Source of the DNA: Dehalococcoidia bacterium
GTDB lineage: Bacteria; Chloroflexota; Dehalococcoidia; SM23-28-2; RBG-16-64-32
Length of the DNA stretch: 64,000 nt
Assembly: GCA_040882565.1 (NCBI GenBank)
Contig: JBBEAZ010000024.1
Location: forward strand, 105,662 to 169,661
Direction: 5' to 3'
Shown: positions 1,730 to 42,760 of the stretch, piece after piece
Layout: each line of letters starts with the position of its first letter
Numbering within the stretch: position 1 is the stretch's first letter
Program-made: the position numbers and the translations under genes
Notes under the pieces: generated by a model
Databases searched by the model: none
Seen by the model: only the letters and a program-made list of their open reading frames with translations
What the model was told of the DNA's origin: nothing

Positions 1730-2329
1730 ATGGCAGCAGTCAGCGAACGAATCGAGAAGATCATCCAGACGATCAAGGACGAGCGGCGACGCTTCTACGT
1801 GTTCTGCCTCTCGCTGAGCGATGAGGAACTAGCGCGGCCAGTCCCCAACAGCACGTGGACGGTAAAGGACTTCATCCCGCACCTCGGGACCCTCGATACG
1901 CAGATCATCCGCTGGTTCGAGGGCGTAGCCGCCGGCATCCCCGATGAGACGATCCGCGACTCGGAAGGCGCTCCCTTCAACATCGACAACTGGAACGACC
2001 GCGCCGTGGCCGAGCGCCGCGACTGGACAGTGGAGCAGACCCTCGACGAGGCAGAGGCCAACCGCGAGCAGTTGATTGCCACTCTTGAGAGGCTCACCGA
2101 CGAGAACATCGAGACGATCGTCCACTTCAGCGGCGACAACAAGCGCCCCGCCGCCAAGGTGCCGCTCAAGTTCTTCCTCTCCGGATGGGCGCACCACGAC
2201 GCCATCCACGTCGCGGACATGCTGAAAGCGCTCCCCGAGCGGGCCAACGACCCCGAGATGAGGGCCTGGCTCGACCACCCGGCCGTCACCTGGTACCAGA
2301 AGGCGATGGAGGGGCCGGCGGTCCGCTAG
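1730..2329 (+). CDS. DinB/MDMPI-like (DinB_2 superfamily) four-helix-bundle protein
   Basis: The start was chosen at ATG 1730 (MAAVSERIEKII), preceded by GGAAGGAG. The longer listed ORF from 1601 has a low-complexity Arg-rich leader. The W-T-V-K-D-F-I-P-H-L motif and conserved His residues are typical of DinB_2 / mycothiol maleylpyruvate isomerase N-terminal-like proteins. A paralog lies at 57375-57866. Confidence 0.6.
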   Translation: MAAVSERIEKIIQTIKDERRRFYVFCLSLSDEELARPVPNSTWTVKDFIPHLGTLDTQIIRWFEGVAAGIPDETIRDSEGAPFNIDNWNDRAVAERRDWTVEQTLDEAEANREQLIATLERLTDENIETIVHFSGDNKRPAAKVPLKFFLSGWAHHDAIHVADMLKALPERANDPEMRAWLDHPAVTWYQKAMEGPAVR

Positions 2330-2860
2330 GCACCAAGCGCATTCAATCGACGTTTCACAGCGTTCAATCGACGCTTTCGGCGGTCGTGTGTATCTGCGCT
2401 TTCGTTGTCCGGCGGGAACGGTTCGTCCGGGTCACAGTCATCGGGTTTCGTCGCCTGTCTCGACTCTGGGACTGTAGCCACCCTCATACCATACTTGCAA
2501 TTGTGGATATTCGTGACACTTTGAGAGCAATCACTTCGGACAGAGAATTGCGGAAGATGAGAGCGAAGAACTGAGCACGTATTTCGTTGAGACCGACCAA
2601 TGGCAGCGCATGTTCAAAGGTGAGGTCGGGTGCCGTTCTTGTACCGAGATGCGCTCGATATGGTTCAAGGAGCCGCCGAGTAGTGCGCGTGTCGGCTGTT
2701 ACAACGGTCAGAGCTGGTGATAATCGCTGACATTTTGACATCTGTGGCACGTAACCGCCCGACAGCCCATGGGAGCTGGCGGGAATGGCGAAGGATGAGA
2801 TTGACAGCACTCCTACAGCAGGTGCATTGTAGGGCCCACTAGGACCTAATGGGAGGACAC

Positions 2861-4027
2861 ATGTCATCTCTTACGCTGTTGGCGGGAACGAGCAATCAGG
2901 CCCAAAGTGAACGCTGTCCTTGGTGTGACAACCCGATAACCCACCGGCAGTTCGAGGAAATAAGAGCGAGAATAGCCTCCGAAGAGCGGAAGCGAGCGGC
3001 GGACGCGGCTGCCCAGTTAGAGGCGGAGCTCAACAGAGAGCGCGCGGAGGCCAAGAAGGTCGTGGAGTCAGAACGGGCCCGTCTAGCGAAGGAAGCCGAC
3101 GCCAGGGTGACCGCTGAGGTTAAGTCGGCCCGCGAAGAAGCGGCCGAGGCAAGCCGTCTCCAACTCGCCGAGATGGAGAAGGCGGCCATAGCCGCCGAGG
3201 CGCGCGTCGACGCTCTTGAAGCGGGCCAAGAAGATATGATTGCGGCCCGGCTCAAGGAGCAACGGACCGCCCTAGAGAAGGACAAGATTGACGCTTTGAA
3301 CGCCGAAAGGGCGCAGCGCTCAAAGGACGAGCTGAAGTTCAAAGAGAAGGTCGACCTCCTCCAACGTCAGCTCGAGAAGAAGACAGCGGAAGACCTAGGT
3401 GAGGGCGCAGAGGTCGACCTCTTCGAAACGCTGAGGGAGGCGTTCCCCGAGGACCTCATCACGCGAGTCGGGAAAGGTAAGGAAGGCGCCGACATTTTGC
3501 ACAGGGTCCGGGACTCTGGCGGCCACCAGTGCGGTTCAATCGTCTACGATTCCAAGAATCGCACGGCTTGGCGCAACGAATACGTAACAAAGCTTCGGAA
3601 GGATCAACTTGTAGCGAAAGCGGAGCACGCGATTCTCACATCTCTCGCGTTCCCAGCCGGCGCGAGGCAGCTTCACTTGCAGGATAGCGTGGTTGTATGC
3701 AATCCCGCGCGAGCTCGGGCAATCGTTGAATTGCTTCGCCGACATATCGTACAGACCCACACCATGCGGCTCAGCGCAGAGGCACGAGCCGAGAAGACTG
3801 CGCATCTGTACGATTTCGTAACATCAGATCAATGCGCTCAACTCCTAGAACAAATCGAGGCGCGTGCCGCAGACATTCTGACCCTTGACGTCACTGACAA
3901 GAAAGCGCACGAGTCGACCTGGAAGAAGCGTGGCGAAATGGTGCGCGCGATTGAGCGTGCTCACTTGGACCTTTCCACGGAGATTGATCGCATCATTGGT
4001 GGGCAATCGATTCGGCTCGTGAAATAG
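2861..4027 (+). CDS. zinc-ribbon / long coiled-coil protein with a C-terminal DUF2130-like region (possible PD-(D/E)xK nuclease fold)
   Basis: ATG 2861 follows GGGAGG. The N-terminus has a CPWC zinc ribbon. About 200 aa of E/K/A-rich coiled coil follow. The C-terminus has the conserved block GKGKEGADILHRV ... GSIVYDSKN ... W ... KLRKDQ, read by eye as a D / D-x-K catalytic-like arrangement. The DUF2130 assignment is from memory of the family architecture and was not searched. Confidence 0.75.
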   Translation: MSSLTLLAGTSNQAQSERCPWCDNPITHRQFEEIRARIASEERKRAADAAAQLEAELNRERAEAKKVVESERARLAKEADARVTAEVKSAREEAAEASRLQLAEMEKAAIAAEARVDALEAGQEDMIAARLKEQRTALEKDKIDALNAERAQRSKDELKFKEKVDLLQRQLEKKTAEDLGEGAEVDLFETLREAFPEDLITRVGKGKEGADILHRVRDSGGHQCGSIVYDSKNRTAWRNEYVTKLRKDQLVAKAEHAILTSLAFPAGARQLHLQDSVVVCNPARARAIVELLRRHIVQTHTMRLSAEARAEKTAHLYDFVTSDQCAQLLEQIEARAADILTLDVTDKKAHESTWKKRGEMVRAIERAHLDLSTEIDRIIGGQSIRLVK

Positions 4028-4028
4028 C

Positions 4029-4982
4029 ATGGGGGATCCGAAGGTGGTTCGCCTTGCTCCCAATCTAGACGCGTTGCAGGAACGTCGACTGGGTCGCACT
4101 GTACTTCGTACCTATCGGGCTACTCTGGACATCGACGACCTCATTCCCAACGAACGCCAACCTAGGCTAGGACCGAAGGAAGACGACGAACTACAGCGCC
4201 AAATTGAGGCCAATGAAGGAGTCTTCGAGCCCTTGCTGGTCGAACCTCACCCTGATGTGCCAGACAAATTCAGAATAATTGACGGCGAGCGACGTTGGAC
4301 GAACTCACTCGCGCTTGTGCACCAGGGGAAAGAACAGTATCGACAGCTGCCCGTCGAGATAACAGATAGAACACTCTCTGACGATGAACGATTGAGGGCG
4401 TGGATTTACATTCATCGCCAGCGCAAAGAATGGGACGCCAAAGAGAAAGAGATGGTGGCCTACAGACTCGTACAGTTAATGGGACGAGCCAGCGCCGCCA
4501 GTATATTGGGCATCACCGTTAGAGAACTGGATAAGCTGGTCGACATATTCGAGCTGTCTGAGCGGTTTGACAATCTGCGGGACCCGAGCGCAGCTATCAC
4601 CTGGGCACGTGAACTGAATGGCGTAAGCAAGAAGCTTCTAACCCCATCGATCGTTGATGCCGTCGTAGGCAAAGTCGGCGACAAGCGCATAACGAACTCT
4701 AAGGATATTCGCAAACTTCGTGTGATCCTTCGCGATCCAGTAGCCAAGGCGAACTTCCTGTCGGATGAGGGTGATATTGATTCCGCGTTGCTGCGAATTG
4801 CCCCGGACGAATCCAGTAAGGACGAACGTGACATCCTCACTCAGCTCGACTTCGCGATGGAGTCCATCCGACGTGCTCCGTGGACTACGCTTGAACAACA
4901 CCGAGGAGACGACCGCTTGATTCGACGCATCGATGAAGCCGAGGAGCTCCTTAGGGCGCTACGCGAGAAGTTGTCGAGGTAG
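4029..4982 (+). CDS. ParB/Srx (ParB N-terminal CTPase / nuclease-like) domain protein with a central HTH
   Basis: The start lies 1 nt after the upstream stop (TAG 4025-4027, ATG 4029), suggesting translational coupling. EPLLVEP ... FRIIDGERRWTNS matches the ParB box II GERRxRA arginine-finger motif. AASILGITVRELDKLV is HTH-like. The C-terminal 130 aa are helical and of unknown function. The gene has about 52 % GC. Confidence 0.8.
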   Translation: MGDPKVVRLAPNLDALQERRLGRTVLRTYRATLDIDDLIPNERQPRLGPKEDDELQRQIEANEGVFEPLLVEPHPDVPDKFRIIDGERRWTNSLALVHQGKEQYRQLPVEITDRTLSDDERLRAWIYIHRQRKEWDAKEKEMVAYRLVQLMGRASAASILGITVRELDKLVDIFELSERFDNLRDPSAAITWARELNGVSKKLLTPSIVDAVVGKVGDKRITNSKDIRKLRVILRDPVAKANFLSDEGDIDSALLRIAPDESSKDERDILTQLDFAMESIRRAPWTTLEQHRGDDRLIRRIDEAEELLRALREKLSR

Positions 4983-5054
4983 GGTCCCGCCGTTAGGAGC
5001 CGCCGGGCAATATGCGGCGCGTCAACTTACGCGAGCGTCAGCGTTTGAGAAAGA

Positions 5055-5225
5055 GACCGTCGAGGACGCCACGCAGGAGCTGTCGCATTGACAAGCCTTG
5101 GCGTCGAAGTTCCGGAGGGAGCGCGACTTGGCGGCCGCTGGTCCGCGAATCTTGCGGCCTGGTTGTCGCGGACTTAGAGTAGGGCGCGATGACGGGGAGA
5201 CCGGGGATTCCCCCTCGCGCAGAGG
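5055..5225 (+). repeat. copy A of an imperfect ~145-170 bp direct repeat (partner at 18186-18330)
   Basis: It aligns at about 85 % identity with 18186-18330. Shared blocks are GTCGCAT, AAGTTCCGGAGGGA, GCGACTT and GGTCCGCGAATCTTGCGGC..GTCGCGGACTTAG..GATGACGG. It has nested hairpins (GTCCGCGA/TCGCGGAC and CCGC-gaatctt-GCGG). Confidence 0.7.
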
Positions 5226-5390
5226 CTTCGGGCGCGAAGTCGAAAGGGGTATGTGGCACGGCCACGCCAGTGTCTCAGGACCCTCTCGGCGGCGAGGTGG
5301 TGGCAATGCGATGGGCTGGCTGTATCGCCCTCGGCCCAAGGGGGGTTACCTCGACCGGCTCATCCCCCGTTACCACTTGGACTGTCTGTC

Positions 5391-5756
5391 TTATGGAACG
5401 TCTTTCTTGGTTTGATTCAGCTTCTCCAATACCGCAGCGAGGGCGTCGATTGTTGCGTCGACGTCGAGAGCTCTGCGGCGGGCATTGTCGTGTATCCAAG
5501 CTAGAGCCTCGGACATTGGTTCACCCTCATCAACGCTGAATTCGTCAATCTGTACGCCCTGTTCGTTGGCGATGGACAAGGTATAGGTGGCACTAAAGGT
5601 AGATTTTAGATCACCGGTGATCCTGACCGAGGCAGGGCCAAAGTTGGCGTCGAAGATGCTATAGTCCGGTTTCGCAATTAGCGCGCGCCATTCTAGCTTG
5701 TCGCTGGCTTCAGCTAGATTCTTAACGATCGATTCGTATCTTGGTGGTATGGGCAT
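5391..5756 (-). CDS. hypothetical protein (121 aa)
   Basis: It is a clean ORF on the low-GC islet with no recognisable motifs (MPIPPRYESIVKNLAEASDKLEW...). Confidence 0.45.
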   Translation of the reverse strand: MPIPPRYESIVKNLAEASDKLEWRALIAKPDYSIFDANFGPASVRITGDLKSTFSATYTLSIANEQGVQIDEFSVDEGEPMSEALAWIHDNARRRALDVDATIDALAAVLEKLNQTKKDVP

Positions 5757-5766
5757 CCTATTTCCT

Positions 5767-6270
5767 TTACGCTTGGCGAGCGTCGAACTGCATTCTAGTC
5801 GATAGGGCGGTGAGAAAAGAAGAAAGTTGCGTTAGGGAGACATGCACGCTCGTCAGTTGTGAATCCTTGGGGTGCGACTCACCTAGTGTGGCCTTGAGTA
5901 GCAGTTTCTCCATATCCTCTACCTGCTCGATGTGCGAGTTGAATGTTTGGGTATCGTCTGCCGGGATGCCAGCTCCTGCGAGCTTTGCGAGGGCTTCCCT
6001 TAGATCGCTCATGCGACCGAGAGCGGCGCCATACTGCCGGTTTCGGACGTGCTCTTGGAGGTTAGTAATGATTCGAACAGCGTTAGTCAGGTCAGTCAGT
6101 TGAAGCTGGCGTGCGAGTTGTCGGGTTGTCGCGTAGACGGTTTCGGCTCTCTTTGCGACAGTATCGGCAGCACTGCGAATCTGCCAGACGGCAACTATCA
6201 GCGCGACGGCTGTCGCCCCTATCCCAGCCAATGCGATGATGTCACGCCAGCCGTCATTCAGAAATCCCAT
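5767..6270 (-). CDS. hypothetical membrane-anchored coiled-coil protein (about 167 aa)
   Basis: The start was moved to Met 6270 (MGFLNDGWRDIIALAGIGATAVALIVAVW, one TM helix). The upstream part of the listed ORF (to 6438) only translates the tRNA-like remnant (..GLEPPTPG..). Confidence 0.5.
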   Translation of the reverse strand: MGFLNDGWRDIIALAGIGATAVALIVAVWQIRSAADTVAKRAETVYATTRQLARQLQLTDLTNAVRIITNLQEHVRNRQYGAALGRMSDLREALAKLAGAGIPADDTQTFNSHIEQVEDMEKLLLKATLGESHPKDSQLTSVHVSLTQLSSFLTALSTRMQFDARQA

Positions 6271-6356
6271 TTCACCGTATGATAATGGTTTGTAGGCACC
6301 CGTGATCTTGGGCGCACAGCGCTCACAACCTGAGATACGGACGCACACCGCCAGCA

Positions 6357-6410
6357 GGATTAGGTTTCCTAAACCGGGTGTCGGCGGTTCGAGTCCGTCC
6401 CGGGGCACCA
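6357..6410 (+). pseudogene. tRNA-Arg(CCU)-like 3' fragment: anticodon arm to CCA, with no matching 5' half. Likely an att-site remnant
   Basis: TAGGT-TTCCTAA-ACCGG / GTGTC / GGCGG-TTCGAGT-CCGTC / CCGGGGC-A-CCA. It has a canonical T-arm and U33/A37 flanking the CCT anticodon. The required 5' acceptor strand GCCCCGG is absent upstream. Confidence 0.5.
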
Positions 6411-6618
6411 CAATTTCGTGCCTGTAGCGAAACCCCATCGACCTACGGTCGGCGCCGGTCCGGGCGAGCCCGCGACCCTCGGAGTGGAAGGAATATCTGC
6501 CCGCTATAAGTCAAGTTACGTTGATTGTGAGGTTGGTTTGGTCATACCCATTCGCGTTCATGACGTAGATCTCAGAGAGTTCGGGTCGGACTAGCGCGGC
6601 GCTTACAATACCCCTGAC

Positions 6619-7158
6619 TTGGCACCCATTACCTATCGCCCCTTTGTTCCCGCTGACCTCCCGCGCATCCGCGACATAGATCGCAGCGAGCGCATCGGCG
6701 TCCTCTATATCCAGCACGGAACACAGCCAGAGGAACGCCGCGGCGACTTCGACTCCCCCAACTGGCTCACGGAAGGCGACGGCGAGCACTCTCTTGCGGC
6801 CCAGCAAGCGCACGTCGAGGAGTTGCTGGCGTCAGGCGCTGTTGCCCTCGGCGCTTTCGATGGCGATCGCCTGGCTGGCATCGGCGTTCTTGTCCAGCAC
6901 CTGCGGCCCGGCGTCGCGCAGCTCGCCTACCTGCACGTGAGCAACGGCTATCGGGCCAGCGGCATCGGCCAGCGGCTGTCCGAGGACCTCGACCACATCG
7001 CCAGGGAAGGCGGCGACAGCGAGATCGTCGTCTCCGCTACGCCGTCACAGAACACCGTGCGTTTCTACACGGGCCGCGGCTACCAGCCGATGGCCGAGCC
7101 GCTCCCCGAACTCTTCGCGCTGGAGCCGGAGGACATCCACCTCCACAAGAAGCTGTAG
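6619..7158 (+). CDS. GNAT family N-acetyltransferase
   Basis: 179 aa, apparent TTG start. The acetyl-CoA motif region is GIGQRL .. VRFYTGRGY. Confidence 0.8.
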   Translation: MAPITYRPFVPADLPRIRDIDRSERIGVLYIQHGTQPEERRGDFDSPNWLTEGDGEHSLAAQQAHVEELLASGAVALGAFDGDRLAGIGVLVQHLRPGVAQLAYLHVSNGYRASGIGQRLSEDLDHIAREGGDSEIVVSATPSQNTVRFYTGRGYQPMAEPLPELFALEPEDIHLHKKL

Positions 7159-7258: not shown

Positions 7259-7576
7259 TTAACGGGCTGTGATGGGCTCCACGCTGCCGTCGGCCGCGAT
7301 GCGCGACGCCAGGATGACCGTCGCCCCGAAGAGATCGCCGTCTTCTTCGATCGGTTCGCCGGCGTTGAGGCCGACGCGGACGTTCAGCGGCTCGCCCTCG
7401 CGGTCGGCAAAGGCGCGTTGGAGCCCGTTGGCGTCGCCTCCTCGGAGCCGTTGACAGTCGCCGGATCCCCCGCCAACGGACGAACCCCCAGGGCTGACGG
7501 CCGCGCTCCACCCACCGGCTGACGGTGCGCCGGTCGATCCCCAGCCTCCGTGCTGCTTCTGAAGCGTTCCCGCCAC
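7259..7576 (-). pseudogene. possible remnant of a class III adenylyl/guanylyl cyclase (C-terminal ~45 aa of the cyclase homology domain only)
   Basis: VRVGLNAGEPIEEDGDLFGATVILASRIAA resembles the C-terminal cyclase motif (IRIGIHTGEVV..GD.FG..VN.AARL). The N-terminal two-thirds of the domain are missing. Confidence 0.3.
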
Positions 7577-9480: not shown

Positions 9481-10317
9481 ACAGCGGGACTTGGATTCGG
9501 GGCGGACTTCGGTCAGGGGCTTGGGGTGCTTCAGCCGAAATCGTATCTGGAGCGGGAGAGGGGCTCGCCCTACAGGTCCCGCCGCGGCGGAAACCCGCGA
9601 CCCTCTGCTTGGAAGGCTCGGACCTGGAAAAAGCGCCGAAAATGAGGATTTCAGATACGAAATTGCGACCAAGATGCCACACTCAGCGGGGTGGTAGCAG
9701 CGGTGTGCCCCTACCGAGGAGACTCACGCTATTTCGTTGTATTTGTCCTCCATTTCGTTCGAATTCGCAGGTGGATTCTAACATGCGCTAAAAGGACCCT
9801 TGCGCCAATCATGGCATCACGAACAGCCCGGCGCGTCCCGACTCCACCTGCGATTCATCTTGCGTCCGGGCTAGGCCGACCGTGCTAGCGCGACAAGCCC
9901 GCTGAGCGATTTGCACCGATCCTCGAAGAGTTCGCTAGTGGACGTTCGTGCGATCCCGCGCGCCGAGAGTTTCGCTTGAAGGTAACATCCGCCAATACAC
10001 CGGTGCCAACGGTTCCGGCGTGCAGTTGTTGATCACCGACCAGCTTCGTTGGGCTGGTCGTGATGTTCGTGGTAGAGAGCGCGAACTGCACGATGCTCGA
10101 CCCGTCCATGGCCTGGAAGTAGCAGCCAATCGCGGGGAGAGGTGGTACAGGGGCCCGTCGTGGCGCCGGTCAGAGGGCCGGCCCGCTGCCAGTTAGAATA
10201 CTTCGCGCAACACAAAGCAAGTAGGCCACAAGCAATGGTTGTAGCAGGCCAGCCGTTCCGGCTCGATCGCGGCTCAGTGCGACCGGTAGAAGGCTGCCCC
10301 CCGCTCCCCCACCATGT

Positions 10318-11388
10318 CTACTTCTCCAGCAAGAACAGTTGATGGTAGGGATGCTCGACGGGAAGCTTCTCGAAGTGAGAGAAGCCGGCCTCCCGCGCCA
10401 GCTCCCGGGCTGTTCCCTCCCCCACTACGTTGCCCAGCCCCTCGCCACCGTGGGCTAGCGAGACTGTCATGCAGTGCATAACGCTGGTGGCGTAGAGGAG
10501 TCGCCCCATGGGGTTGATGTTGTCCTCAAGGCGGTCGGACGCGTTGGCCTCCGACCACAGGAAGGCGCCGTCGGGTTTGAGGGCCCGGCAGACGCCGGCC
10601 AGGGCACCGCGCGGGTTGGCCATGTCGTGGATGCAGTTGAAGGCGATGATGAGATCGAAGTGGCCCTTGTGGGGGATATCCTCCGCCGCCGTGAACTCGA
10701 ACGATACCCGTTCGCCGAGGTCGGCATTGGCGGCGTGTCGCCGTGCCCGGCGGATAGACTCCTCATCGATGTCATAGCCAACAAAGCGTGAGTTGAGGTA
10801 GGCCTTGGCGAAGGGGATGAGGGCCTGACCGGCGCCGCAGCCGACTTCCGCGACGTCCGCCCCGGCCTTGACCCTCTCGAACACCTCTCCAAGGGCCGGG
10901 AGCCACTGGGTCGCCACCGCGCTCTCGTAGCCGGGCGCGAAGAGGCGTTGGATGGCCTCGACGATCTCGGGTCCAAACTCGGCAAAGGCGATGCCGCCAC
11001 CGTTCTTGAAAGCTTCCATCAGTCTCGGCAGTTGCCGGACGCACGCTTGGGCGTAGAGGAAACCACCGCCCATGAAGCGGGGACTATCATCGTCTGCCAG
11101 CACCGCCACCTGTTCAGGACTGAGCCGGAAGGTGTGATCCCGAGGATTGTAGTCGATATATTCCGATGCGGCCATGGCGGCGGCCCACTCGCGTATGTAG
11201 CGCTCGTTCAGGCCGGTGCGGTCCGCCAGGTCCTGCGAGGTCATTGGCACGCCGTCAGCCAGCGCCCGGAAGATGCCCAGCCGGTCGCCGATGTAGGCGA
11301 GCGCGATGATGTGGGCGCCGCCCCAGTCCTGGAGCACGCGGGTGGCAAACTGGGCGACCTTGCCAGGATCTGCGGATCGCTGTGACAC
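10318..11388 (-). CDS. class I SAM-dependent O-methyltransferase with an N-terminal dimerisation (wHTH) domain
   Basis: EVGCGAGQALIPFA is the SAM motif. The N-terminal helix is VLQDWGGAHIIALAYIGDRLGIF. The start was set at GTG 11388 to avoid a 130-nt overlap with the upstream gene. The listed 11541 start adds a low-complexity leader. Confidence 0.8.
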   Translation of the reverse strand: MSQRSADPGKVAQFATRVLQDWGGAHIIALAYIGDRLGIFRALADGVPMTSQDLADRTGLNERYIREWAAAMAASEYIDYNPRDHTFRLSPEQVAVLADDDSPRFMGGGFLYAQACVRQLPRLMEAFKNGGGIAFAEFGPEIVEAIQRLFAPGYESAVATQWLPALGEVFERVKAGADVAEVGCGAGQALIPFAKAYLNSRFVGYDIDEESIRRARRHAANADLGERVSFEFTAAEDIPHKGHFDLIIAFNCIHDMANPRGALAGVCRALKPDGAFLWSEANASDRLEDNINPMGRLLYATSVMHCMTVSLAHGGEGLGNVVGEGTARELAREAGFSHFEKLPVEHPYHQLFLLEK

Positions 11389-11410: not shown

Positions 11411-12562
11411 TTAGCGGGGCGTCCCGGCAGTCGCTGGCTGGCGCTCGATCCTGTCCGCGAAGTAGGGCATGACCAGGCGCCCGAAGCGCTCCGCCTCCTC
11501 GTCGTGGGGATAGCCGGAGAGGCAGAACTCCGTGCAGCCAAGGTCGATGAATTCCTGGATGGTCTCGGCTACCTGCTCCGGGTTGCCCACGATGGCGACG
11601 CCGGCGCCTGGCCGCACAGTGGCGACGCCGCTCCAGAGGTGCTTGCCAATCCGGAGGTCTTCAGTCTGCGCCAGCTCCTTCATCCTAGTGTTCGCCTGCG
11701 ACTCCCTCCACATATTTTGAACGACGTCCTTTAGCAATTGAGGCGCACCGGCGATGAGGGCGTCGGCGTCCCGCCACGCCTTTTCCTCCGTCTCGCGGAC
11801 CAGCACCTGGAGTCGCATGCCGAAAGCGAGGTCGTCCCCGCGGCCGTACTTTGCGGCAACGCGCTTCACTTCGGCGACCTCTTCGGCGATCCGCTCGGGA
11901 GTGTCGCCCCAGAAGAGGTAGACGTCGGCGTGCCTGGCGCCGACCTCTCTGGCGGCGGGCGAGATACCGCCGATGTAGAAGCGCGGATGGGGCTTCTGGT
12001 AGGGACGGGGCTGGACGACGGCGTTCTCCACCTGGTAGTACTTGCCTTTGTGGGTCACGGGCCCGTCTTCAGTCCAGAGCCGCTTCATCAGCGTCACCGT
12101 CTCGTCCATGACTTCGTAGCGCTCGTCGTGTTCGTAGAAGAGGCCTTCGGCGGCCTGCTCGGCGCCGCCGGGCCCGGCGATGAGGTTGATACAGACGCGC
12201 CCCTGGGTGAGCTGGTCGAAGGTGGTGAACATCTTGGCCATGAGCGTGGGCAGCATGTAGCCGGCGCGCACCGCCACCAGCGGCTTCAGGCGCTCCGTGC
12301 GGGCCGCGACCATGGCGCAGGCGATCCAGGCCTCGTAGCACATGGTCTGGACGGGAACGAGGGCGTACTCGAAGCCGGCGCTCTCGGCCGCCTGCGCGAC
12401 CTTTGTGAAGTGGTCCAGGCTGGGCGGGATGTTTGCGGCGCCATCGCCGAACGCCCTCGTGTCACCAGCGGTCGGGATGAACCAGCCGAAGCGAAGGCGG
12501 CCGTTGTCCTTTGTTCCCGTGTCGTCTACCGATGGGTGAACCATAGCTCCACGTTCAGCCAT
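11411..12562 (-). CDS. LLM-class flavin-dependent monooxygenase (luciferase-like; SsuD/alkanesulfonate-monooxygenase-like)
   Basis: The start was set at Met 12562 (MAERGAMVHPS), 13 nt after the tauD stop. The TIM-barrel LLM signature regions are FGWFIPTAGD and GGAEQAAE. The upstream 70 aa of the listed ORF are Arg/Ser low-complexity. Confidence 0.85.
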   Translation of the reverse strand: MAERGAMVHPSVDDTGTKDNGRLRFGWFIPTAGDTRAFGDGAANIPPSLDHFTKVAQAAESAGFEYALVPVQTMCYEAWIACAMVAARTERLKPLVAVRAGYMLPTLMAKMFTTFDQLTQGRVCINLIAGPGGAEQAAEGLFYEHDERYEVMDETVTLMKRLWTEDGPVTHKGKYYQVENAVVQPRPYQKPHPRFYIGGISPAAREVGARHADVYLFWGDTPERIAEEVAEVKRVAAKYGRGDDLAFGMRLQVLVRETEEKAWRDADALIAGAPQLLKDVVQNMWRESQANTRMKELAQTEDLRIGKHLWSGVATVRPGAGVAIVGNPEQVAETIQEFIDLGCTEFCLSGYPHDEEAERFGRLVMPYFADRIERQPATAGTPR

Positions 12563-17271: not shown

Positions 17272-17769
17272 GTGCTCTTGCCAGACAAACTTACCTCAGC
17301 GCAAGTTGAACGCTTCCTGCGGGGCCGCCACATAGCTGTGCTCACTACCGTCAACCCCAACGGCGCGCCGCTTCAGACCCCCGTCTGGTATCTCTACCGC
17401 GACGGGCTCATTTACATTCGCACCAACTCTCTAAGTGCCAAGGTGCGCAATGTTCGGCGCGATCCCCGAGTCAGCCTCTGCGTCCAGGATGAGCGGCCAC
17501 CGTACCGCGGCGTAACAGTCACAGGTGTCGTCGCAAGGATTGAGCCAGACCGGCGAGAGATATCGACGGTGATGTCTCGGAATTACCTCGGCATGGTCGC
17601 GGGCTTCTTCTATTTGCGACTTCGCACTCGCAACGAGATCGAGGACGATCCTGACATGATGCTAGTGATCAAAGCGCAGCGAAAACACGGCTGGGACTAT
17701 CGCCCACGCACTCCCCTGGTCGGCCGCGTCTGGCTGGCCTTCAAGCGCGTGCTGCCGCCTTGGCTGTAA
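17272..17769 (+). CDS. pyridoxamine 5'-phosphate oxidase family protein (likely PPOX-class F420-dependent)
   Basis: GTG start after CCAGGAGG. HIAVLTTVNPNGAPLQTPVWY is the PNPOx-like split-barrel signature. Confidence 0.8.
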   Translation: MLLPDKLTSAQVERFLRGRHIAVLTTVNPNGAPLQTPVWYLYRDGLIYIRTNSLSAKVRNVRRDPRVSLCVQDERPPYRGVTVTGVVARIEPDRREISTVMSRNYLGMVAGFFYLRLRTRNEIEDDPDMMLVIKAQRKHGWDYRPRTPLVGRVWLAFKRVLPPWL

Positions 17770-17775
17770 CGCGAC

Positions 17776-17940
17776 GGATTGGAAGAGGCGAAGGACGTCG
17801 TTGTACCACTTGATCGTCTTTACCGACTTGCCCTCGGTCTGGTTGTGGAACTCCCAGTACTCTTTCAGTTCGTCAAGCGTGAGCTTGTTCACTGTCTTCC
17901 TCCACTTGAGAGCGGAGTTGCGCTTCTCTAGCTTCAGCAT
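17776..17940 (-). pseudogene. tyrosine recombinase (phage integrase) N-terminal SAM-like domain fragment, truncated after about 55 aa
   Basis: MLKLEKRNSALKWRKTVNKLTLDELKEYWEFHNQTEGKSVKTIKWYNDVLRLF matches the integrase N-terminal pattern LT..EL.E.WLE.....G.S..TI..Y...L. The frame then runs into the antisense of the PNPOx gene. GC is lower here (about 52 %). Confidence 0.55.
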
Positions 17941-18122
17941 TTCCGGCGTGCCTCCTACGAGTCAAACTTGAGTGAGATCGAGATGAGATGCGGGTGATGC
18001 TTGCGTGATCTCGACTCGGCCAGGCACGCTCTGCAAAAGAGAGGGTGGCAGCGGTTCACCAGACGACTAAACGGGTCACCCCGTTTGCGCCAAACCGCGA
18101 ATTCGTATCTGAAAATGGGGTT

Positions 18123-18198
18123 TGGCGCCCCCGGAAGGACTCGAACCTGCAACCCGCTGCTTAGAAGGCAGATGGTCTTTCGGTCATTAACGCGTCGC
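18123..18198 (-). pseudogene. tRNA-Arg(UCU)-like sequence: the 3' two-thirds are canonical, the 5' part is degenerate. Pseudo-tRNA / att remnant
   Basis: Minus-strand reading: TCTGC-CTTCTAA-GCAGC / GGGTT / GCAGG-TTCGAGT-CCTTC / CGGGGGC-G-CCA. The 5' 26 nt (GCGACGCGTTAATGACC..) cannot form an acceptor or D-arm. Confidence 0.55.
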
Positions 18199-18330
18199 AT
18201 CAACCGGCCTTAGCGCCAAGTTCCGGAGGGACGCGACTTAGCTGCCGCGGGTCCGCGAATCTTGCGGCTTCGCTGTCGCGGACTTAGTGAGGGGCGCCAT
18301 GACGGGACGAGACCGGTGATTCCGCTACAG
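18186..18330 (+). repeat. copy B of the imperfect ~145 bp direct repeat (partner at 5055-5225)
   Basis: See copy A. Its left end overlaps the degenerate 5' part of the pseudo-tRNA. Confidence 0.7.
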
Positions 18331-18434
18331 CCCTTCGGCCGGACGGGGCACACGAGCACCCGCATCGTCTTCGGCGCCACCCTCAGTCACGCCACCGCAG
18401 GTCAGAAATCCGTTACGCTCTCGTCTCAGTCCTT

Positions 18435-19049
18435 CTATTTCTTTGCGGGCTGATACTTGATGTGCGTGACGGTGTCGGAAGCGACCACGCGGGCGGGCTT
18501 CAGTTCGATCGTCTTACCCATGCCGTTGAACAGCGGCCGTCCTCCACCGAGCAGCACGGGAGCGATGTGCACCTGCAGTTCGTCGAGGAGGCCCAGCGTC
18601 AGCAGTTGCTGGATGATGCTCGCGCCGCCGGCCACTGAGATGTGCTGGTTGCCGGCAGCCCCCTCCGCCTGCTTGAGCGCCTCTTCGATCGAGCTGACGA
18701 AGTGGAAGGTCGTGCCGCCCTCCTTCAGGAGTGGCTCTCGCGGGCGGTGAGTAACGACGAATACGTCGTTGTGGAACGGCGGGTTAATGCCCCACGGCTC
18801 CTCGGCGAAGTCGAACATCCGGCGGCCCATGATCGTCGCACCAACTCCCTCAATCGACTCCGCCATTACGTCCGAGTCGGGGCCTTCCTTGCCGCCCGTC
18901 ATGCCGTGCGGCTCGCGCCAGGCCTTGAGCCCGTACACCCACTGGTGCAGGCGCTCGCCGCCGTCCCCCAACCCGTTGTCCGGACTGTCGTTCGGGCCGG
19001 CGATGAACCCGTCCAGGGACATCGAGATGTCTGCTCTTAGCTTACCCAT
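18435..19049 (-). CDS. dihydrofolate reductase family protein (RibD C-terminal domain-like, YwjB/YyaP type)
   Basis: 204 aa. SMSLDGFIAG ... VAGGASIIQQLL..GLLDELQVHIAPVLLGGGRPLF. Confidence 0.8.
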   Translation of the reverse strand: MGKLRADISMSLDGFIAGPNDSPDNGLGDGGERLHQWVYGLKAWREPHGMTGGKEGPDSDVMAESIEGVGATIMGRRMFDFAEEPWGINPPFHNDVFVVTHRPREPLLKEGGTTFHFVSSIEEALKQAEGAAGNQHISVAGGASIIQQLLTLGLLDELQVHIAPVLLGGGRPLFNGMGKTIELKPARVVASDTVTHIKYQPAKK

Positions 19050-19059
19050 GGCTTACCCA

Positions 19060-19353
19060 TCACTTTCCATCCTTCCCCGGCTGGTACGTGAGTAGCACCA
19101 CGCCGGTCTTGTACGTCTTCGAGTCGACGAGACGCAGCTTCGGGATTGTGGCGTCATCGCGGAACAGGCGCAGGCCACTGCCAAGCACGATCGGGAACAC
19201 CATCAGGTCGTACTCGTCGACCAGGTCGTGCTTCACCAGCGTCTGGACCAGGTCACCGCTGCCGTACACGAGGATGTTGCCGAGGTCCTGCTTCTTGAGG
19301 TCGGCCATGCGGGCGAACCCGTCGATGATCACGAGGCGTGATATCTCGTCCAA
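19060..19353 (-). pseudogene. C-terminal half of a second RibD_C/DHFR-family gene (N-terminal half missing)
   Basis: LVYGSGDLVQTLVKHDLVDEYDLMVFPIVLGSGLRLF corresponds only to the C-terminal ~95 aa of the fold. Confidence 0.5.
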
Positions 19354-19399
19354 GTGTCGCGCCGCAAAGGCTATGATGGCAAGCGTCGCTGTAGCGATG

Positions 19400-19741
19400 C
19401 TGGCGAGTGCAAATTGGGAAACAGCCTGCGCGCTTCAGCACGGCTTCCACATCTAGCACAAAGTCATCAAGCTGCCGGGCCTGGGTGCGGTCGGACAGTC
19501 CCGTCCCGCGAAGATCGAAGCGAATCAATGTGTTTGTTCGCGCGAGCTCGCCGAGGAGGGTGCCGAGCACCGGATTCGAACACTCGAGCTGCACATGGCT
19601 GGCTGTGGACTCCATGGCGAAGATGAGCGGCGGGCCCTCGCCGGTCACCGTGTACGCGATGCGCACGCCATCGCTCGTCATGCAGTAGCGGACTTCGGGC
19701 TCCATGAGGCGGATTGTACAACCAGAGTCGTGGCTGGACAC
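19400..19741 (-). pseudogene. alpha/beta-hydrolase N-terminal fragment (nucleophile elbow missing)
   Basis: MTSDGVRIAYTVTGEGPPLIFAMEST...FDLRGTGLSDR is a typical hydrolase N-terminus. The frame degenerates before any GxSxG motif. Confidence 0.45.
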
Positions 19742-39771: not shown

Positions 39772-39786
39772 GTCAACATTGACTCC

Positions 39787-39865
39787 ACCACAAACCCGCC
39801 ACCGCCTTGCTCGATGGCGAACGCGCCATCCGTGGTCTGCCACGCCCCGCAAACTTGCGTCTTGT
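39787..39865 (+). repeat. cassette-array repeat R1 (slightly 5'-truncated copy)
   Basis: ACAAACCCGCCACCGCCTTGCTCGATGGCGAACGCGCCATCCGTGGTCTGCCACGCCCCGCAAACTTGCGTCTTG. Contains the hairpins GATGGCG/CGCCATC and CGCAA-ac-TTGCG. Confidence 0.8.
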
Positions 39866-39957
39866 CGCAGGTCTCGCGCCCCGTCGTGCGCTCCGTCTGC
39901 AACCGCGGCCGACGACGCGGTTCATGGCCGCGATTGTGGCCACGTTGGCTCGCACGT

Positions 39958-40350
39958 CTAGGCGATGGGCGTGCCGTGCGTGGCACTGCGATTGTAGGCA
40001 GCATCTCGCCTGCGCTTGGTCGAGAGGATCCCTCCCACGAGCCCATGTAAGAACGCGCCGACAGGAAAGACAATCCACGCAGCAACGAAGATGGGTCCCC
40101 CGAAAAAGAAAAGCGGCTCGGTGGCAAGAACGACCATGGTGGCCGATATTCCAAGCAGCGTCCCCACAGGCAAATTTCTGGTCGACGCGAGAAGAAGACC
40201 CACCAGCCAACCGCCAATCCAAGCTCCAACGAAAGGAACTTGGAGAAACCACGGCATTACAGCAATCACGAATGCTATCAACAATCCGATGATGCAGAAA
40301 AGTATGAACGTGCCCAGTCCGTATTGATGAGCCGCGCGAGCCATAATCAC
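39958..40350 (-). CDS. cassette ORF 2, four-TM membrane protein (130 aa)
   Basis: Hydrophobic segments FILFCIIGLLIAFVIAV, VGAWIGGWLVGLLLA, etc. Confidence 0.5.
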   Translation of the reverse strand: MIMARAAHQYGLGTFILFCIIGLLIAFVIAVMPWFLQVPFVGAWIGGWLVGLLLASTRNLPVGTLLGISATMVVLATEPLFFFGGPIFVAAWIVFPVGAFLHGLVGGILSTKRRRDAAYNRSATHGTPIA

Positions 40351-40380
40351 AGTTTACCTTGGGGCGGGTTTCGCCCCCCT

Positions 40381-40470
40381 ACTCGAACGCCCCATCCACG
40401 ACAAACCCGCCGCCTTGCTCGATGGCGAGCGTGCCATCCGTAGTCTGCCACGCCCCGCAAACTTGCGTCT
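40381..40470 (+). repeat. cassette-array repeat R2
   Basis: ACTCGAACGCCCCATCCACGACAAACCCGCCGCCTTGCTCGATGGCGAGCGTGCCATCCGTAGTCTGCCACGCCCCGCAAACTTGCGTCTCG. Confidence 0.8.
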
Positions 40471-40486
40471 CGTGCGCGCCACGCTG

Positions 40487-40732
40487 TCACACGACCGCCC
40501 ATACATTCGCTGCGACCGCCGCAGTTCCGACAAGCAAGAACGATCCCGGCATGATCCAGCGGGCATAGCGACGCCACAGGTCACGTCGTCGCTTCTGCTC
40601 GTCGGGAGGTAGCTGTGGGGGAATAATTGCAGGATTCTTCAGCGTGGAATCGGCCACGATGTCAAAGATGGGCTTCACAGCAGTTAGCAACCCGGCTGCG
40701 ATGAAGCATGCCCCCAATATCAGCATCACCAT
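40487..40732 (-). CDS. cassette ORF 3, two-TM small membrane protein (81 aa)
   Basis: MVMLILGACFIAAGLLTAV .. SFLLVGTAAVAANVWAVV. Confidence 0.45.
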   Translation of the reverse strand: MVMLILGACFIAAGLLTAVKPIFDIVADSTLKNPAIIPPQLPPDEQKRRRDLWRRYARWIMPGSFLLVGTAAVAANVWAVV

Positions 40733-40736
40733 TGCT

Positions 40737-40830
40737 TCCCCCTACTCACGGCCCACCCACGACAGACCCGCCACCGCCTTGCTCGATGGCGACCGTGCCA
40801 TCCGTAGTCTGCCACGCCGCGCAAAGCTTG
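40737..40830 (+). repeat. cassette-array repeat R3
   Basis: CTCACGGCCCACCCACGACAGACCCGCCACCGCCTTGCTCGATGGCGACCGTGCCATCCGTAGTCTGCCACGCCGCGCAAAGCTTGCG. Confidence 0.8.
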
Positions 40831-40839
40831 CGATCGGAT

Positions 40840-41328
40840 CTAGAACGGGCACTCAGGAACCTCGGTCAGTAGCCACGAACCGTCGTCCTGGCGTGCCACA
40901 CCCCACTCATAGGCAACCGTCTTCACATTGGCACCAGCCCTCGCGACGAACTGTCCGCGAACGACCGCCTCGCCATCGCGCCCCGGAGTGATCTCCGCGG
41001 GGTCGTCTAATTCGATGCCTGCACCCACGGGAGCACACCCAACGAAGGAGGAAAGCTGATCGTCCTCAATTCGGTCGTCAATTAGTGGCCGAAGCAAGCG
41101 CTCCGACGGAATGAAAGCCCTGTTCATCACATCGCTAACGAGAGAGTTGATGTCCTCTTCGTCCCTCTGAGAAAGCAAAGTGACACCCGGAGTTGCCGTT
41201 GGGTCAATCCGCACGGGCGACGTTTCCGTGAAGGTGTCGGAGAACTGAACGTCCGTTCCAGCGGACAGCAAATACAGCACGATCAACGCGACTACTATAG
41301 CTACAACCAGAAATACGATCTTTCTCAT
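40840..41328 (-). CDS. cassette ORF 4, secreted/membrane-anchored protein (about 162 aa)
   Basis: Start ATG 41328 (MRKIVFLVVAIVVALIVLYLL signal-anchor). Confidence 0.5.
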   Translation of the reverse strand: MRKIVFLVVAIVVALIVLYLLSAGTDVQFSDTFTETSPVRIDPTATPGVTLLSQRDEEDINSLVSDVMNRAFIPSERLLRPLIDDRIEDDQLSSFVGCAPVGAGIELDDPAEITPGRDGEAVVRGQFVARAGANVKTVAYEWGVARQDDGSWLLTEVPECPF

Positions 41329-41354
41329 GTGCAAATCAGAAAGTCCGACGAATC

Positions 41355-41455
41355 ACCCCTACTCGAACGGCCCATCCGCGACAAGCCCGCCGCCGGCTTG
41401 CTCGATGGCGAACGCCGCCATCCGTAGTCTGCCACGCCCCGCAAACTTGCGTCTC
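41355..41455 (+). repeat. cassette-array repeat R4
   Basis: CCCCTACTCGAACGGCCCATCCGCGACAAGCCCGCCGCCGGCTTGCTCGATGGCGAACGCCGCCATCCGTAGTCTGCCACGCCCCGCAAACTTGCGTCTCGG. Confidence 0.8.
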
Positions 41456-41785
41456 GGTGCGGGTCGCGGTTCCCGAACCCAGCGGCGGCCACCATCGTTG
41501 TCCTAGCAACCGTGCGCGCCTTCCATCCACAGCCTCGCCACTGGTCCGTCTTGATGTCAGCTCTCGTGTCGTTCGCCTTGGCGATGGCGCTGATGAGTTT
41601 CACGTACTTAGTGGTGCTCGCAGCAAACGAGTTTGCCAGCACGCCTACCTCGTGTGATCGGAGATGGGCGGGGCTTCCAGACCCGAGCACGAGCATCGCA
41701 TCCGAATATGTGAGGGAATTTAGCGAACTTGATAAGGCGGGCTGCAGTCCTCGCTCCTATTTCTACTGATTCAAACTGAACCATT

Positions 41786-42154
41786 TCACGATTCGCGGCC
41801 TTCGTTCTCCTTGGTCCATATCGCGTTCATCACCGCCATGCCGTGATCTGTGATGGCGAACTCGACAAACTCATGATCTGGTGACTCTGAGCCAGCCCAA
41901 TTATCCGGATTCGCGAGGACATCATTGATGTCTTCGGCGGGGATCGGTCGGGCGTCGGATGGGTCGTGTTTCGCAAAGACCAGCCTGACAAGTCCTTTGG
42001 CAAGGAGGCTCTGTAGCGTTGGTTCAGTTGATCCGCTGACCTCGACTCCAGTGGGAGAGAGCGTGATCGTGAAACTGGGGTTGAACTCCTGAAGGCCAAA
42101 CGAGTCGTCGTACGAAATTTCTAACAGGGCCCGTTCCTGATCCGTCAGATCCAT
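41786..42154 (-). CDS. cassette ORF 5, soluble hypothetical protein (about 122 aa)
   Basis: Start at Met 42154 (MDLTDQERALLEISYDD..). The upstream part of the listed ORF merely translates repeat R5. Confidence 0.45.
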   Translation of the reverse strand: MDLTDQERALLEISYDDSFGLQEFNPSFTITLSPTGVEVSGSTEPTLQSLLAKGLVRLVFAKHDPSDARPIPAEDINDVLANPDNWAGSESPDHEFVEFAITDHGMAVMNAIWTKENEGRES

Positions 42155-42198
42155 CACGCAGCGATTATAGACTTCACGCCGCGCGCGCCGACGGCTCG

Positions 42199-42290
42199 CC
42201 ACTCGACGGCCCACCCACGACAAACCCGCCACCGTCTTGCTCGATGGCGGACGTGCCATCCGTAGTCTGCCACGCCCCGCAAACTTCGCC
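42199..42290 (+). repeat. cassette-array repeat R5
   Basis: CCACTCGACGGCCCACCCACGACAAACCCGCCACCGTCTTGCTCGATGGCGGACGTGCCATCCGTAGTCTGCCACGCCCCGCAAACTTCGCC. Confidence 0.8.
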
Positions 42291-42312
42291 TCGTTGAGCG
42301 CGTTGGGTCGTC

Positions 42313-42760
42313 TCAAGCCAACGCGAAACGAGGGACGGCGTGGCCAACTTGGCGCAATCTAAGCAAGAGGTGGTCGCGGTTCGGGGGTTGCGCGTGCAAT
42401 GCGAATCGCAGCCTTCCGGGTCGGGAACCGCGATAACGCACTCCTTCAAGAGCGAGAATCGATAAGACCTCCATGAATTGCCGGAAGCGATCCCGGTCGG
42501 GAAGAAGCCTGTCCGCGTCCGAAACGAGTGCCACGTATTGGGAAGCTGGCAGCCAACTGAGATCCCTCATCCAATCTACGAGCGAATTCCAATTGTTGCT
42601 GACGGTCGGGAAATCGAATGCGAAGCTCCAAGCAGCCAGAAGGGCATCCTCGTCATCTCCGCTATCGCCAGGTACGGTTCGAACAACCAAGTCTGCTGCT
42701 GGCTGCGCCTCAAGAAAGCGATCCAGCTGACCGCGACTGCCCACCAAGACACTGAGCCAT
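42313..42760 (-). CDS. barstar-like (barnase-inhibitor family) putative immunity protein. Start codon uncertain
   Basis: LVVRTVPGDSGDDEDALLAAWSFAFDFPTVSNNWNSLVDWMRDLSWL follows the barstar pattern (.. F.FP.Y.G.N.DAL.D.L.DL ..). The N-terminal part of the listed 208-aa ORF overlaps a partial repeat copy. Confidence 0.5.

Follow-up and report, generated by a model that had tools for sequence, protein, structure and literature searches.

A decayed tRNA-Arg(UCU) integration junction in a Dehalococcoidia genome and the Xer-like integrase family to which it belongs

The locus described here lies in a 64,000-nucleotide (nt) stretch of a Dehalococcoidia bacterium genome (GenBank assembly GCA_040882565.1, contig JBBEAZ010000024.1, positions 105,662 to 169,661; hereafter the window). 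On the minus strand, the interval 17776-18171 carries the 3' part of a tRNA-Arg(UCU) gene, a spacer and the first codons of a Xer-like tyrosine integrase gene, in that order (Table 1). The integrase piece stops beside an apparently intact PNPOx gene on the opposite strand, while on the other side a short filler is followed by one copy of a repeated hairpin, a RibD_C/DHFR-like reductase gene and two gene fragments. An earlier reading made from the sequence alone, the original prediction, had taken this arrangement for the scar of a tRNA-integrated element that has since been deleted or rearranged.

The truncated integrase gene and the tRNA fragment

The integrase N-terminal fragment proposed in the original prediction is borne out by comparison with full-length proteins. 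Its residues 1-55 align with residues 1-54 of the 334-aa protein P0003 at 87% identity (E 2e-30), and it also aligns to a whole family of proteins of ~335 aa. The fragment opens a minus-strand open reading frame (ORF) of 92 aa (17940 to 17662) that, after codon 55, runs for 37 more codons antisense to the 3' end of PNPOx. The proposed check with hidden Markov models was less direct, in that Pfam gave no match to the 92-aa ORF by itself, and the similarity came from the full-length integrases. As Pfam was silent on both this ORF and the hydrolase ORF described below, homology had to come from relatives. A search with the first 59 residues returned only the query and one 56-aa relative, on the 910-bp contig L007. 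This contig begins within the T arm of a tRNA and continues with a spacer, a start codon and an integrase N-terminus that are the same as in the window, the spacer at ~95% identity; past a 1-nt frameshift its ORF reaches a Phage_integrase domain (PF00589, E 2.4e-14), and the repaired L007 protein, used as a query, retrieved the family of ~335-aa proteins.

The SAM-like domain of P0003 covers residues 24-122 and the PF00589 catalytic domain residues 143-311, so the window keeps only SAM-like residues 24-54, about a third of that domain, together with the leader. The fragment therefore shows the N-terminal, SAM-like homology of a tyrosine recombinase and lacks the catalytic domain (R..K..HxxR..H..Y), with 16% of the gene left. 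In the alignment of full-length relatives the catalytic residues are invariant (DTGLR, KGNKER, HLLRHT, LGH, RRYV). The abrupt end beside PNPOx noted in the original prediction is also seen at the DNA level, where alignment with L007, L009 and L010 is lost at ~17780; the stop codon of PNPOx, at 17769, is ~10 nt away.

Upstream of the integrase start, the spacer corresponds to the left-end sequence of the element and is 94.7% identical to that of L007, 91.3% to that of L009 and 90.6% to that of L010. It carries the motifs CAGATACGAATTCG and GAACCGCTGCCACC, found by motif enrichment, and a GGAGG ribosome-binding site. In an RNAalifold run on five aligned tRNA-integrase spacers the covariation term was positive and no structure was convincing.

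The tRNA fragment comprises the anticodon stem-loop with UCU, the variable loop, the T arm, the 3' strand of the acceptor stem and CCA. From 18171 to 18127 the window shares 97.8% identity with the genuine tRNA-Arg(TCT) of L009 (its positions 29-73), and with CGCCA added the fragment reaches its CCA end at 18123. The 5' 28 nt are missing, and there is no complete cloverleaf with a paired acceptor stem and D arm. ARAGORN called no tRNA in the whole window, nor did it when thresholds were lowered to 80%, and a scan of the whole window at Rfam gathering thresholds gave no match. The Rfam tRNA model (RF00005) gave the tRNA-like sequence 14.7 bits (E = 9.5), where the gathering score is 29, in a partial match to model positions 5-66 with a 10-nt deletion and four non-canonical pairs. 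A genuine full tRNA, which would have spoken against a scar, is contradicted by both the missing ARAGORN call and the low Rfam score.

The anticodon stem is interrupted by a U27-C43 mismatch and the T stem by a C-U mismatch (GCAGG/CCTTC). The second pair of the T stem covaries in intact relatives, which read GCAGG/CCTGC in L009, GAAGG/CCTTC in L007 and GGAGG/CCTCC in L008. When the filler was compared by eye with 19 tRNAs of related loci, its 3'-most ~10 nt, GAAAGACCAT, loosely resembled a decayed D-arm/position-26 region (consensus AGAGCNN), and nothing tRNA-like was seen further 5'. The sequence that had been called a pseudo-tRNA-Arg(UCU) is thus correctly assigned as to its Arg(UCU) 3' part, but it is an attachment-site (att) type 3' fragment and not a whole decayed tRNA: the core is the 3' part of the tRNA and leads directly into the family spacer and the start of the integrase.

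These features are present in other assemblies. Window positions 8435-29049 correspond without differences to contig JBBDPA010000022.1 of the NCBI metagenome-assembled genome (MAG) GCA_040876785.1, which runs out near window position 7136, so that the window must stem from a longer assembly of this population; a second MAG, GCA_040903865.1, and two Logan assemblies (SRR27977662, SRR27977658) have the same sequence wherever they overlap the window. Two joints matter, that of PNPOx and the integrase at ~17780 and that of repeat B and the tRNA fragment at ~18172-18193. The first is covered at 100% identity by GCA_040876785.1 and both Logan assemblies and the second by both NCBI MAGs; as each is thereby covered at 100% identity by at least two independent assemblies, it is very improbable that the joints are MAG assembly chimeras absent from any real chromosome. 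In favor of such chimeras, contigs of GCA_040903865.1 break at window positions 17834 and 18025 and Logan contigs end at 18146/18148, which places the region on a branch of the assembly graph. These ends, which lie inside the integrase-fragment, spacer and T-arm region and belong to L005, L002, L004 and L006, fit a second copy of the spacer and integrase 5' end, probably intact, that is probably present in the same genome or community.

Table 1. Features of the junction, of the second element end and of the flanking sequence (positions in the window).
Feature	Position	Strand	Basis
First 55 codons of Xer-like tyrosine integrase, pseudogene	17776..17940	-	Homology to P0003 and family alignment
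tRNA-to-integrase spacer, element left-end sequence, 182 nt	17941..18122	-	Conserved in relatives
tRNA-Arg(UCU) 3' fragment, att core, 49 nt	18123..18171	-	Homology to L009 tRNA
Junction filler, 22 nt (putative)	18172..18193	-	By-eye comparison with 19 tRNAs of related loci
Right end of same-family element with degenerate tRNA-Gly(UCC) 3' fragment	9536..9800	-	nhmmer and alignment to L008 19290-19559
RibD_C/DHFR-like reductase, intact, 204 aa	18435..19049	-	PF01872, E 8.5e-18, profile 3-195 of 197
C-terminal ~83 codons of paralogous RibD_C, fused to hydrolase fragment	19060..19308	-	PF01872, profile 122-197 only
N-terminal ~130 codons of alpha/beta-hydrolase-guanylate-cyclase gene, frameshift near 19421	19309..19705	-	tblastn
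Repeat copy A, between convergent genes in low-GC block	5097..5235	.	Direct partner of B
Repeat copy B, ~145-nt imperfect long hairpin	18194..18338	.	Direct partner of A

Intact counterparts and the integrase family

An intact island at a tRNA-Arg(UCU) gene, which the original prediction had suggested seeking in related genomes, was found in L009, where a tRNA-Arg(TCT) (9743-9819) is followed by a 181-nt spacer and a 334-aa integrase gene (10001-11005). The arrangement in L008 is more elaborate. An intact tRNA-Arg(TCT) comes first and one hydrolase-cyclase gene second, after which non-tRNA DNA leads to a 48-nt copy of the tRNA 3' part, with the spacer and the integrase behind it; the 48 nt recur 9.7 kb downstream as a third copy, the matching attR. 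This layout makes L008 a tandem array with a clear attL/attR pair. When the element cargo of L008 and L009 was compared with the window by tblastx, only the two element ends matched. Because these relatives carry the same junction intact, that of the window is an ordinary, non-functional scar, and the intact counterparts in L009 and L008 support the original prediction on this point. Within the Arg-type element of L008 there is also a nested pair of tRNA-Gly(UCC) 3' fragments (12062-12111 and 19131-19164).

The integrase family comprises 62 loci, almost all of them from MAGs of Chloroflexota/Dehalococcoidia. A same-strand tRNA lies at most ~320 nt upstream of the integrase in 22 of the 34 loci that were scanned, the targets among these 34 being Gly-TCC, Gly-CCC, Arg-TCT, Lys-TTT, Thr, Met and Leu. 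Three loci, L015, L031 and L037, have the same layout as the window, with a tRNA 3' fragment and an integrase and no tRNA nearby. In L011 the tRNA identity stops just after the anticodon arm, fitting a crossover in the anticodon loop. The L011 tRNA-Gly(CCC) (9783-9825) ends there directly beside an intact integrase, so that the L011 element does not rebuild its target tRNA.

Targets have changed repeatedly within the family. Across 26 integrases placed in a neighbour-joining tree, Arg(UCU) targets arise three separate times among Gly(UCC/CCC) targets, and the family has accordingly switched between Gly and Arg targets at least three times. A single chromosome, OZ253555.1, has two integrases that are 94% identical to each other, one at a Gly(UCC) tRNA and the other at a Gly(CCC) fragment. 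The anticodon arms of Arg(UCU) and Gly(UCC) are essentially one base apart, and switching is frequent between tRNAs with such near-identical anticodon arms.

We therefore read the minus-strand interval 17776-18171, with a probability of about 0.82, as a dead attL-type junction of a tRNA-inserting integrative element from a family common in uncultured Chloroflexota. The anatomy of the intact relatives, taken with the established model of tyrosine integrases that target tRNA genes (tDNAs), suggests how such a junction would arise. The ~335-aa Xer-like integrase would recombine attP with a tRNA gene at or near the anticodon loop, the crossover being placed within this loop from where identity begins. 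The attP would duplicate the tRNA from its anticodon loop through CCA, and upon integration this element-borne 3' part would rebuild the tRNA and be followed by the ~180-nt spacer and the integrase gene, leaving the displaced tRNA 3' part as a marker of the far end of the element. An attL rather than an attP is indicated by the bases just 5' of the core, which are tRNA-like (CTG plus AGAcCA), while the other-end sequence of the family reads ...GGTCCGAG at this position.

Comparison of the sequences shows how the junction has decayed. The integrase gene breaks off after codon 55, through a deletion or rearrangement with its second endpoint 10 nt past PNPOx, and the tRNA has lost everything 5' of about position 20-28, where a segment containing repeat B now abuts the break. 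The retained tRNA fragment has gained two stem-breaking differences, and a second deletion, to the right, has joined a frameshifted hydrolase-cyclase gene, of which ~130 codons from the start remain, to the last ~83 codons of a RibD_C paralogue. The junction is no longer able to recombine and is a relic.

Several observations weigh against this reading. The classical island signature is incomplete, as the 64-kb window has neither an intact tRNA-Arg(UCU) nor a second Arg(UCU) fragment, and the only right end of the family type in the window has a Gly(UCC) core and not an Arg(UCU) core. Repeat B abuts the truncated tRNA without explanation. In addition, the order of events and the deleted content are beyond reconstruction, and synteny with the nearest BVMO relatives is not conserved.

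A second element end and the surrounding mosaic

The Gly-type right end is found to the left of the junction. Window positions 9800 to 9617, on the minus strand, share ~80% identity with the 170 nt before the L008 attR core. In the tRNA-Gly(UCC) fragment that follows (9616 to 9555) the T loop is replaced by ~33 nt, after which comes the motif CAGATACGATTT, and inverted CAGATACGA motifs flank the Gly core. Both conserved ends of the family are thus present in the window, on the same strand and in the right order, 8.6 kb apart and with different cores. A candidate SAM riboswitch at 9540-9661 (22 bits against 44, E 0.18) was rejected, its match being explained by the inverted GATACGA motifs that flank the Gly core.

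The two ends might belong together. Positions 18171 to 17780 and 9800 to 9555 would in this case be the ends of one ~8.6-kb element that carried an Arg(UCU) attP and integrated off-target in a tRNA-Gly(UCC), with the crossover in the shared CCTTC of the anticodon loop. The attL would be an unpairable hybrid tRNA with a Gly 5' and an Arg 3' part, the attR would combine the element end with the Gly 3' part, and the integrase body and the 5' third of the tRNA would have been lost by later deletions. This possibility refines the reading as a dead tRNA-Arg junction and is not an exclusive alternative to it. The strand, order and spacing of the ends are in its favor, the L008 element being 9.7 kb long, and so is the similarity of the Arg(UCU) and Gly(UCC) arms, two targets between which the family has switched. 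T27 forms a mismatch with the C43 of its own fragment and would be matched by the A43 of the Gly fragment, and the CAT that precedes T27 matches Gly tRNAs such as that of L011 (GCATCTGC). Moreover, swapping the halves regenerates the family attP, GGTCCGAG joined to CCTTCTAAGCAGCGGG, as in L008. However, the argument rests on one base, T27, and two to three flanking bases in decaying sequence, and the rest of the tRNA-Gly 5' half is absent, a match of ~35% being random. The cargo between the ends looks like ordinary chromosomal sequence and has nothing in common with the L008 cargo, and two related islands at different tRNAs would produce the same chimera through homologous recombination. The T27 and half-swap evidence weakly suggests a single off-target integration, and recombination between islands explains the chimera equally well. 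We consider the off-target insertion possible but unlikely, and hold it somewhat more doubtful that the Arg left end at 18171 and the Gly right end at 9555 stem from one off-target event that would be a snapshot of integrase target hopping.

A tandem arrangement similar to that of L008 was also considered. Here the junction would be an internal, attP-like joint of an island array, and the tRNA fragment the displaced core between an upstream element, comprising the RibD_C genes, the hydrolase and repeat B, and a downstream element with the integrase. L008 is itself such an array, with a hydrolase-cyclase homologue between the intact tRNA-Arg and the fragment proximal to the integrase, and L015, L031 and L037 likewise have a fragment followed by an integrase without a tRNA nearby. 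We regard this arrangement as improbable, as the window has no intact tRNA upstream, with the BVMO stop ~57 nt from the hydrolase start, and the sequence 5' of the core differs from the conserved end of the family. The core also reaches at least 3 nt (CTG) further into the tRNA than do cores beside the conserved end.

Returning to the reading as a dead attL-type junction, the presence of the family's other end at 9536-9800 makes the scar part of a ~17-kb mosaic of island remnants (about 2.3-19.7 kb) in which no fewer than two other tRNA-fragment remnants occur. An Arg(CCU)-like 3' fragment of a tRNA, the third such fragment, lies on the plus strand at 6362-6412 (T arm GGCGG/CCGTC, ending CCGGGGC-A-CCA) and is overlapped by a spurious ORF start ('RDGLEPPTPG'). 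It is located at the right edge of a low-GC block (2250-6500, 0.52-0.58 GC) that encodes DUF2130 and ParB_N proteins and also holds repeat A. This block with its tRNA fragment is probably another decayed island, without integrase and tRNA.

To the right of the junction, the original prediction had listed an intact RibD_C/DHFR-family gene, the C-terminal half of a second copy and the N-terminal half of an alpha/beta hydrolase. The first of these has the full-length RibD_C domain (Table 1) and stands as described. The 97-aa ORF at 19060-19353 covers only the C-terminal part of the 197-position PF01872 profile and is therefore a RibD_C fragment; the two sequences are only 33% identical, which makes them paralogues and the second a distant relative rather than a recent duplicate. 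The first 15 residues of this ORF (MDEISRLVIIDGFAR) derive from the hydrolase and not from RibD_C. Pfam gave no match to the ORF of the hydrolase fragment. By tblastn, residues 1-93 of the L008 cyclase match positions 19705-19421 (41% identity over 97 aa, E 2e-12), and residues 93-137 of L076_c4 match 19422-19288 in another reading frame. The gene is thus not a full alpha/beta-hydrolase-class III cyclase fusion, as only residues ~1-137 are present, frameshifted and without a cyclase domain. The match across two frames and the hydrolase-derived MDEISRLVIIDGFAR indicate that one deletion fused the hydrolase N-terminus to the RibD_C C-terminus, so that the two truncated genes of the original prediction are real as gene parts but are joined in a single deletion scar, and the hydrolase is frameshifted.

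In L008 the homologous hydrolase-cyclase gene directly follows the tRNA-Arg. The window has no tRNA at the corresponding place before the hydrolase fragment, where ~57 nt separate the BVMO stop codon from the start codon of the hydrolase, and promoter-proximal similarity to L008 is limited to ~20 nt (GTACAAT...ATGGAGCC). The ancestral right flank was sought through the closest BVMO homologues (88% and 85% identity), where synteny is not conserved. The closer of these, in L076 (4614-9990), has four tandem hydrolase-cyclase paralogues directly upstream of BVMO, and the hydrolase-cyclase genes are therefore a multi-copy chromosomal family in the lineage. The minus strand also has 36 aa of a class III cyclase domain at 7292-7399, with 89% identity to the hydrolase-cyclases of L076; its neighbours are a GNAT gene and an S8 peptidase gene, and the hydrolase fragment, on the same strand, is 12 kb away.

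Repeat B, which had been included in the predicted scar, is a real direct repeat of copy A, ~87% identical and 13.1 kb distant, but is not among the conserved ends of the element family. The hairpin has an internal CTAAGTC(C)GCG duplication. Searches with two sub-patterns in metagenome contigs and with one each in genome and viral contigs gave no further copy, and neither did nhmmer against the fetched loci; nine viral-contig matches were dismissed as chance 18-mers. Promoter and terminator scans around both copies found nothing. Four one-sided substitutions stay G-U compatible on the plus strand only, which hints at a plus-strand RNA, although two copies without a fold signal prove nothing. 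The repeat could be a new structured RNA or a recombination site that delimits a 13-kb unit.

We also weighed whether repeat B and the tRNA-like sequence together form a functional structured RNA, namely a tRNA of unusual form or a tRNA-like RNA whose 5' domain is extended. The GGCGCCCC in repeat B (about 18290-18297) is complementary to the 3'-end GGGGCGCC, and the two are paired in the centroid fold. Folded as one RNA, however, the sequence does no better than shuffles (z = -0.58), and this candidate was rejected. Copy A has no tRNA-like partner, Rfam gives no match beyond the weak partial tRNA, and the T-stem and anticodon-stem mismatches are avoided by covariation in all intact relatives, all of which makes such an RNA hardly credible. 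Elsewhere in the window, five copies of a 78-nt direct repeat (62-94% identical) occur at 39776-42313 with a spacing of 364-839 nt, overlapping a 60-nt family.

Relation to known tRNA-gene islands

In the Islander description of tDNA-integrated islands, a tDNA and its fragment mark the island ends, and tandem arrays and anticodon-centred attP sites are known (PMC4383910). The family described here resembles these islands in several respects. Its integrase gene comes right after the tRNA and shares its strand, and the tRNA 3' part that the element brings along reaches from the anticodon loop to CCA; L008 has a displaced 3' fragment at the far end, and tandem arrays and damaged islands occur as well. 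With respect to the Islander signature, an integrase beside a tDNA is present in L008 and L009, whereas the window has codons 1-55 of ~335. Also missing from the window are an intact target tRNA at one end and, at the other, a cognate 3' fragment of the tDNA with matching orientation. Unlike Islander islands, the window relic retains 16% of an integrase, and the 64 kb contain neither an intact tRNA nor a second, cognate fragment; the Islander filters, which call for an integrase and for a tDNA with its fragment, would reject it.

The domain layout of P0003 and P0005 (24-122 and 143-311) is like that of XerC/XerD, in which PF00589 is combined with a SAM-like domain (PF02899/PF13495), and XerC/XerD are also their best NCBIfam matches, at 189 and 181 bits, far under the equivalog cut-offs of 335 and 330. 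Unlike XerC/XerD, the genes of the family adjoin tRNAs at island ends rather than dif-related loci, and the window copy is without a catalytic domain. Prokaryotic tRNA gene fragments are described elsewhere as being mis-called as tRNAs or pseudo-tRNAs (PMC9897764). The window piece resembles the fragments described there in being a partial, non-functional tRNA 3' piece tied to mobile DNA, and differs from that description in that ARAGORN makes no call for it and its origin is traceable to a specific integrase family.

Collectively, these comparisons identify the feature as a non-functional relic of a known type, from an uncharacterised but conventional integrase family. The dead junction matters little by itself, being a familiar tRNA-gene island decayed by deletions. 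It does flag the region from ~2.3 to 19.7 kb as a mosaic in which several ORF calls are pseudogenes and in which PNPOx, PAS-GGDEF-EAL, TauD, the luciferase-like monooxygenase, the methyltransferase and RibD_C may be horizontally acquired or rearranged. Beyond the window, it points to a widespread, uncharacterised Xer-like integrase family in Chloroflexota/Dehalococcoidia, which targets tRNA-Gly(UCC/CCC), Arg(UCU) and Lys(UUU) in the region of the anticodon arm and switches repeatedly among them. The mixed Arg and Gly ends of the window might record such a target switch in progress.

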